This document shows positions 1-333 of a DNA stretch of 333 nucleotides, one piece after another (the first letter of the stretch is position 1; every line of letters begins with the position of its first letter). The stretch is from NCBI RefSeq assembly GCF_003334765.1, contig NZ_QOWT01000139.1, one strand, 5' to 3'. The position numbers and the translations under genes are program-made. The notes beneath the pieces are model-generated. The model ran no database searches. It was not told where the DNA came from and saw nothing but the letters and a program-made list of their open reading frames with translations. This stretch comes from Escherichia coli (GTDB lineage Bacteria; Pseudomonadota; Gammaproteobacteria; Enterobacterales; Enterobacteriaceae).

Positions 1-192
1 CGTATTCACCAACAACATCCGACATCCCGTCTTTTTCCGTTCTGTACCGGTAAATACCGCTGGCACGGCAGTGCTGAGGCGTATACCGGTCGTGAAGTGC
101 AGGATATTCCCGGTGTGCTGGCTGTATTTGCAGAACGCCGTAAGGACAGTTTTGGCCCGTATGTCCGCCTGATGAGTGTCACCCTGAACTGA
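1..192 (+). CDS. yeeT: DUF987 family small protein (YeeT-like), 5'-truncated by the window edge; C-terminal 63 codons plus TGA stop
   Basis: Frame 1 is open from position 1 to the TGA at 190-192 and translates to RIHQQHPTSRLFPFCTGKYRWHGSAEAYTGREVQDIPGVLAVFAERRKDSFGPYVRLMSVTLN*. This matches my recollection of the C-terminal 63 residues of the 73-aa E. coli YeeT, so the start would lie about 30 nt upstream of the window. Identification is from memory, not a search. Confidence 0.85.
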   Translation, partial: RIHQQHPTSRLFPFCTGKYRWHGSAEAYTGREVQDIPGVLAVFAERRKDSFGPYVRLMSVTLN

Positions 193-200
193 GTCAGGGC

Positions 201-217
201 ATTCTGATGAGCAGAAT
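201..217 (+). repeat. Short inverted repeat ATTCTG-N5-CAGAAT in the yeeT-cbeA spacer; potential 6-bp stem / 5-nt loop in the mRNA or a small dyad site
   Basis: Directly visible: 201-206 ATTCTG and 212-217 CAGAAT are exact reverse complements separated by ATGAG. The stem does not extend (200 C vs 218 T) and no T-run follows, so it is not a canonical intrinsic terminator. The repeat is certain; any function is speculative. Confidence 0.3.
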
Positions 218-255
218 TATCGCCACTACCGGACCATTCTTAACCGATTTTCTGT

Positions 256-260
256 GAGGA
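256..260 (+). promoter_or_regulatory. Shine-Dalgarno sequence (GAGGA) for the cbeA GTG start
   Basis: GAGGA at 256-260 is complementary to the 16S rRNA 3' end; a 7-nt spacer (TTTTATC, 261-267) separates it from GTG 268. Confidence 0.65.
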
Positions 261-267
261 TTTTATC

Positions 268-333
268 GTGTCAGACACACTCCCCGGGACAACACTTCCC
301 GACGACAATCACGACCGCCCCTGGTGGGGGCTG
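268..333 (+). CDS. cbeA: Type IV toxin-antitoxin antitoxin CbeA (YeeU family), N-terminal 22 codons only; 3'-truncated by the window edge
   Basis: GTG at 268-270 is the first plausible start after the in-frame stop at 241-243 and sits 7 nt downstream of a GAGGA. Translation is (M)SDTLPGTTLPDDNHDRPWWGL, open to the window end. This matches the N-terminus of YeeU/CbeA as I recall it, including the N-terminal extension that the shorter paralogs YfjZ and YafW lack. The position immediately downstream of a yeeT-like gene fits the known yeeT-cbeA order. Confidence 0.85.
   Translation, partial: MSDTLPGTTLPDDNHDRPWWGL

Follow-up and report, generated by a model that had tools for sequence, protein, structure and literature searches.

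Assignment of an Escherichia coli yeeT-cbeA junction to the island-borne gene block of the type IV CbtA/CbeA toxin-antitoxin pair

Introduction

Is yeeT, which encodes a small DUF987 protein and adjoins the antitoxin gene cbeA, a working part of the toxin-antitoxin system beside it, or is it separable from that system? This question is raised by a stretch of 333 nucleotides from an E. coli assembly (GCF_003334765.1, contig NZ_QOWT01000139.1), hereafter called the window. An earlier, sequence-only reading assigned the window to the yeeT-cbeA junction of a "CP4-44-like cryptic prophage" toxin-antitoxin module.

The pair itself has been characterized in E. coli K-12. The toxin CbtA has two independent targets, MreB and FtsZ, the latter bound at the H6/H7 loop, and it thereby blocks both division and elongation (PMC5624674). 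The antitoxin CbeA attaches to the filaments of both targets and favours their bundling; the toxin is thus neutralized without contact, the hallmark of type IV (PMC5624674). The three K-12 antitoxins neutralize their toxins, YfjZ also neutralizes the non-cognate YkfI, and the operon is autoregulated by neither toxin nor antitoxin (PMC5371832).

Results

The window joins the 3′ part of yeeT to the 5′ part of cbeA

Frame 1 of the window is free of stop codons up to the TGA that closes yeeT (1-192) and translates as RIHQQHPTSRLFPFCTGKYRWHGSAEAYTGREVQDIPGVLAVFAERRKDSFGPYVRLMSVTLN, followed by the stop; read from base 1, the yeeT frame opens with RIHQQHPTSRLF and ends in LMSVTLN. Translation from the GTG at 268 to the 3′ edge (268-333) gives VSDTLPGTTLPDDNHDRPWWGL. 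When 5426 complete E. coli genomes were searched by megablast, 14 complete chromosomes matched with 100% identity over the 333 bases (E=3e-173), and the annotation under all 14 reads "DUF987 domain-containing protein" and "cbeA". A match to the window was found in 4809 of the 5426 genomes, with a median of 3 places per matching genome. The exact matches, the Pfam hits of the encoded proteins (described below) and the same order and strand put this observation far beyond chance. The identification of the two partial reading frames as YeeT and CbeA/YeeU, in the known order and orientation and both on the plus strand, was thus borne out. The caution that the window fixes neither locus nor strain was also justified, given the 14 identical genomes and the several places per genome. 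The features of the window are listed in Table 1.

Table 1. Features located in the 333-nt window
Feature	Position	Strand	Remarks
3′ part of yeeT (DUF987)	1..192	+	Codons 11-73 plus TGA stop at 190-192
yeeT-cbeA spacer, 75 nt	193..267	+	From a 12-copy E. coli alignment; the last ~35 nt are the conserved portion
Shine-Dalgarno sequence of cbeA, GAGGA	256..260	+	7 nt before GTG; kept in 12/12 aligned copies
5′ part of cbeA (yeeU), GTG start and first 22 codons	268..333	+	Full gene is 375 nt
Mini-ORF, 16 codons, MSRIIATTGPFLTDFL then stop	207..257	+	Within the spacer; rejected as a gene
Inverted repeat ATTCTG/CAGAAT, 6 bp with 5-nt loop	201..217	.	Short hairpin, putative

We therefore regard it as close to certain that the window is the yeeT-cbeA junction of a conserved block, antirestriction-RadC/JAB-DUF987-cbeA-cbtA, which carries the type IV CbtA/CbeA pair. 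The module is already annotated in thousands of genomes, and both its gene order and the toxin-antitoxin mechanism have been published; as had been stated from the sequence, this is a known module and not a novel system.

Full-length genes belong to the expected protein families

Full-length genes for the protein tests were taken from an exact-match locus, that of strain FDAARGOS_1261 (L001). The yeeT coding sequence is annotated there at 11971-12192, its start lying 30 nt upstream of the window, and is followed on the plus strand by cbeA at 12268-12642 and, directly downstream, by the toxin gene at 12689-13066. Note that the cbtA start is 356 nt past the 3′ edge of the window because the rest of cbeA intervenes. 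YeeT (73 aa) matches DUF987 (PF06174) over positions 1-65 of 65 (E=2.2e-39, 133.7 bits). CbeA (124 aa) matches CbeA_antitoxin (PF06154) over positions 1-100 of 101 (E=6.9e-54) and aligns over its full length with the solved YeeU-type structures 2INW and 2H28 (E~1e-79), and the toxin matches CbtA_toxin (PF06755) over positions 1-112 of 112 (E=5.5e-63). No NCBIfam model was hit by YeeT, CbeA or CbtA; the RadC protein encoded upstream of yeeT passed the curated TIGR00608 threshold of 133.85 bits with a score of 149.1. The order of antitoxin then toxin on the same strand, by which CbtA/CbeA type IV pairs are recognized, was found in the genomes of identical sequence. Specifically, five exact-match genomes have a CbtA-family toxin directly after cbeA and a RadC/JAB gene immediately before yeeT, as the sequence-only reading had predicted for the two flanks.

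Variation was seen at the 5′ end of cbeA in other copies: at L015 (868-1230), an in-frame deletion in the N-terminal tail gives a gene of 363 nt vs 375 nt, and at L016 (715-1137), cbeA is an annotated pseudogene with an internal stop. In K-12 CP4-57 (L005, 4920-5869), the antirestriction and RadC-like paralogues yfjX and yfjY are now annotated as lfgA and lfgB. LfgB has been described as a protease with the antitoxin MqsA as its substrate (PMC10846083), so that one may ask if the RadC/JAB gene adjoining yeeT encodes a protease as well.

The module is a CP4-44-type allele with paralogues in K-12 and on a plasmid

We compared the module with its named relatives. The K-12 CP4-44 genes yeeT-cbeA-cbtA (b2003-b2005) have the same order, strand, GTG start and GAGGA site, and the DNA is 97% identical to the window (321/331 aligned bases, with 10 substitutions and a 2-nt indel). 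Protein identity to the CP4-44 set is 100% for YeeT, 91.8% for CbeA, 89.5% for CbtA and 98.6% for RadC/YeeS, and the C-terminus of CbeA differs between this allele and K-12 CP4-44. The solved YeeU/YfjZ structures 2H28, 2INW, 2EA9 and 2JN7 differ by few substitutions from the CbeA studied here, of which the window covers the first 22 residues.

K-12 holds three paralogous copies, in CP4-44, CP4-6 and CP4-57, so that the several K-12 paralogues named in the earlier reading were all recovered. The CP4-6 (ykfH-yafW-ykfI) and CP4-57 (ypjJ-yfjZ-ypjF) copies lie in paralogous RadC-DUF987-antitoxin-toxin blocks of the same Pfam families. On the other hand, their DNA is only ~74% identical to the window, and this within the DUF987 gene alone, and protein identity to the present set is 58-66% for DUF987, antitoxin and toxin. 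Furthermore, their spacers are 18 and 37 nt long vs 75 nt here, and their antitoxins, of 105 aa, are without the N-terminal ~20 residues of CbeA. The same five genes, in the order antirestriction-RadC-DUF987-YeeU-CbtA, are also found on the conjugative IncHI1A plasmid pNDM-CIT. This plasmid allele is of the CP4-6 type, with an 18-nt spacer and identities of 63% for YeeT, 67% for CbeA and 61% for CbtA. Plasmid matches to the window were few (55 records), several of them megabase-sized.

Presumed growth regulation and possible mobile-element functions of the pair

CbeA and CbtA of this allele share only 91.8% and 89.5% identity with the proteins tested in K-12, whose activities we assume for them. 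By this analogy, CbtA would bind FtsZ and MreB and stop division and elongation, and CbeA would bundle the same filaments, cancelling the toxin without touching it. A different role, in which the pair serves mainly in anti-phage abortive infection or in stabilizing the island and not as a growth regulator, has some points in its favor. The pair is carried on mobile islands and on a conjugative plasmid, adjoining antirestriction genes, and the proteins that the F-type conjugation (type IV secretion) machine was found to translocate include CbeA, YfjZ and YagB (PMC11288057). However, none of the PADLOC defence models matched YeeT, CbeA, CbtA or RadC, and phage defence by the pair was shown in none of the cited experiments. 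We consider such a role unlikely, though it deserves mention, and keep to the filament-targeting activity known from K-12.

YeeT is conserved but probably stands outside the toxin-antitoxin mechanism

YeeT is identical to the K-12 protein, and the gene differs from that of K-12 by 8 synonymous and 0 nonsynonymous changes. The dN/dS ratio was 0.05-0.13 against eight other copies and 0-0.13 across copies overall. yeeT is a real gene under strong purifying selection. An antisense ORF (6-182, minus strand, 58 aa, GTG-initiated) lies wholly inside the selected yeeT sequence and was taken as a chance frame. The DUF987 family is small, with 178 representatives at E<=0.001 among 1.84 billion protein clusters. 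Two very long proteins also match short pieces of YeeT, namely P0181 (1077 aa, in 10 stretches) and P0199 (4115 aa); these matches cover YeeT residues 11-31 and 22-54 and may be repeats or spurious.

The fold of YeeT is predicted with confidence, and searches with it returned no significant match among solved structures (PDB) or viral structures (BFVD). YeeT, YkfH and YpjJ had been proposed as prophage antirepressors of the FsoA/GfoA/Rem-like kind, and derepression of dicBp, the target assayed, was obtained with none of them (PMC10448788).

YeeT could act within the toxin-antitoxin system as a third functional component, e.g., a regulator or helper of CbeA. In agreement with this, cbeA is always immediately preceded by yeeT, both in E. 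coli and on pNDM-CIT, and the selection described above is strong. However, the toxicity of YkfI was unchanged when the three upstream genes, ykfH included, were co-expressed (PMC5371832). Furthermore, at eight distant DUF987 loci (35-46% identity), none of the eight has a CbeA or CbtA relative, as examined by recorded Pfam hits and tblastn with a positive plasmid control. An obligate partnership of YeeT with the pair is therefore unsupported by these eight loci. The only distant locus with recognizable neighbours, L022 (1636-5172, contig of Logan SRR26329184; DUF987 identity 37%), has RadC, ArdC and an antirestriction gene in place of CbeA and CbtA. Its full order is RadC - DUF987 - ArdC (ArdcN + MPTase-PolyVal) - unknown - Antirestrict - RadC, an arrangement that associates DUF987 with antirestriction clusters instead of the toxin-antitoxin pair. 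Participation of YeeT as a third component thus appears quite improbable; YeeT probably lies outside the toxin-antitoxin mechanism and appears to belong, as a separable member, to the block of small "establishment" genes of the island.

Exact-match copies lie in an island other than CP4-44

The genomic contexts of 5 of the 14 exact matches were inspected, one of which, FDAARGOS_1261, was traced upstream to the start of its island. The order in all five is Ag43 - DUF932 - antirestriction - RadC/JAB - DUF987 - cbeA - cbtA - DUF5983 - DUF957 - DUF4942. Beyond DUF4942, an IS110 fragment and then kpsF, of the kps capsule genes, follow in four of the five, and the secretion genes yghD/gsp in strain A20. 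The DUF5983 gene (yeeW-like; L001 13063-13239) overlaps cbtA by 4 nt and is a truncated pseudogene in all five genomes (L001, L002 and L018-L020).

Upstream in FDAARGOS_1261, yqgA, a tRNA-Phe gene and a tyrosine integrase gene are found about 64 kb before the window, with the pap fimbrial operon and Ag43 between the integrase and the module. The tRNA-Phe gene adjoining yqgA is, judging by K-12 synteny, presumably pheV. In this genome, the module marks the far terminus of a ~66-kb island inserted at tRNA-Phe, beside kps/gsp. More generally, the block antirestriction-RadC/JAB-DUF987-cbeA-cbtA almost certainly has this terminal position in P4-integrase-type islands of E. coli and its relatives.

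A source at the CP4-44 locus itself, in the K-12-like position after flu-yeeR-yeeS, would fit the 97% DNA identity and the identical YeeT protein, and in many genomes, the best match is annotated yeeT/cbeA at a CP4-44-like position. However, the K-12 order flu-yeeR-yeeS-yeeT-cbeA-cbtA-yeeW was not seen in the five exact-match contexts, where yeeR is absent, DUF932 and the antirestriction gene are present instead, and the region abuts kps or gsp. The traced island begins at the tRNA-Phe gene, and the K-12 copy is separated from the window by the 10 base differences and the 2-nt indel. We hence consider this source very improbable: the allele is CP4-44-like, and the locus of the exact-match copies is not CP4-44.

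The prophage label was also examined. No phage structural or lysis genes were found in about 110 kb of annotated context, and only 1 of 50,697 phage records had a match, a 3.2-kb unannotated fragment; a phage origin of the element was rejected, with this single fragmentary record as the only match. Because no phage structural genes are found in the vicinity and the module is all but absent from sequenced phages, the label is loose: the element is not a working phage, and "cryptic prophage" is a historical name. Of the description "CP4-44-like cryptic prophage", the likeness of the allele stands, but neither the locus, which for the exact copies is a tRNA-Phe island, nor the prophage does.

The yeeT-cbeA spacer is ordinary intergenic DNA carrying a ribosome-binding site

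The GAGGA sequence, with its 7-nt distance to the GTG, drives translation of cbeA. No promoter-like or terminator-like site was found on the plus strand of the spacer, and overall counts of such sites were near shuffled expectation. We infer that cbeA is probably transcribed by read-through from the upstream genes, in agreement with the remark that these genes seem to share an operon with the toxin-antitoxin genes (PMC5371832). For the spacer, Rfam returned only sub-threshold chance hits, and its RNA fold was no better than that of shuffled sequence (z-score +1.15).

The mini-ORF in the spacer was rejected as a gene, since it is disrupted in 5 of the 11 other E. coli copies. L010 and L012 have lost its ATG, L009, L012 and L013 carry a 1-nt deletion that throws it out of frame, and in L014 the segment is swapped for a different, longer sequence. 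In a four-way alignment, its ATG aligns with the start codon of yafW/yfjZ. That the spacer carries a regulatory element of its own, be it a structured RNA or a leader peptide with a stop codon overlapping the ribosome-binding site of cbeA, is extremely unlikely. In favor of such an element, the TGA of the mini-ORF overlaps GAGGA, the frame is intact in 6 of the 11 other copies with the stop preserved as TAA in K-12, and its ATG sits in the loop of the 6-bp hairpin. Against it stand the disruptions listed above (2 of the 11 copies without the start, 3 out of frame and 1 with the segment replaced), the absence of the whole segment from CP4-6 and CP4-57, the fold score and the lack of any Rfam family match. 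We conclude that the region, its ribosome-binding site aside, is ordinary intergenic sequence.

Several copies show further changes in this region. In L012 (NZ_CP172818.1), the hairpin loop at window 201-217 is inverted (ATGAG to CTCAT) with both arms, ATTCTG and CAGAAT, retained, a pattern typical of hairpin-templated (quasipalindrome) template-switch mutation; the inversion also destroys the mini-ORF ATG. The 1-nt deletion in L009 and L013 brings the spacer ATG in frame with cbeA, which, if used, would add a 20-residue N-terminal extension to CbeA; RefSeq annotates the GTG start. A common variant, represented by L014 (654-815, NZ_CP074031.1) and also by hits H63-H68, has a yeeT-cbeA spacer of 162 nt, in which a different, longer sequence stands in for the usual 5′ half and only the final ~35 nt, next to the GTG, are retained.

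Discussion

For the window itself, the result is a clean negative, in that no hidden RNA, peptide or new system lies within it. Beyond this, the window bears on the role of DUF987, a family found in most E. coli genomes. The selection on yeeT, a predicted fold unmatched among the structures searched, the antirestriction neighbours at L022 and the lack of a toxin-antitoxin link at all eight distant loci leave room for a role of its own. Rather than a bystander, YeeT/DUF987 could be an establishment or anti-defence factor of mobile elements, a tentative guess of low probability that we draw from gene neighbourhood only.
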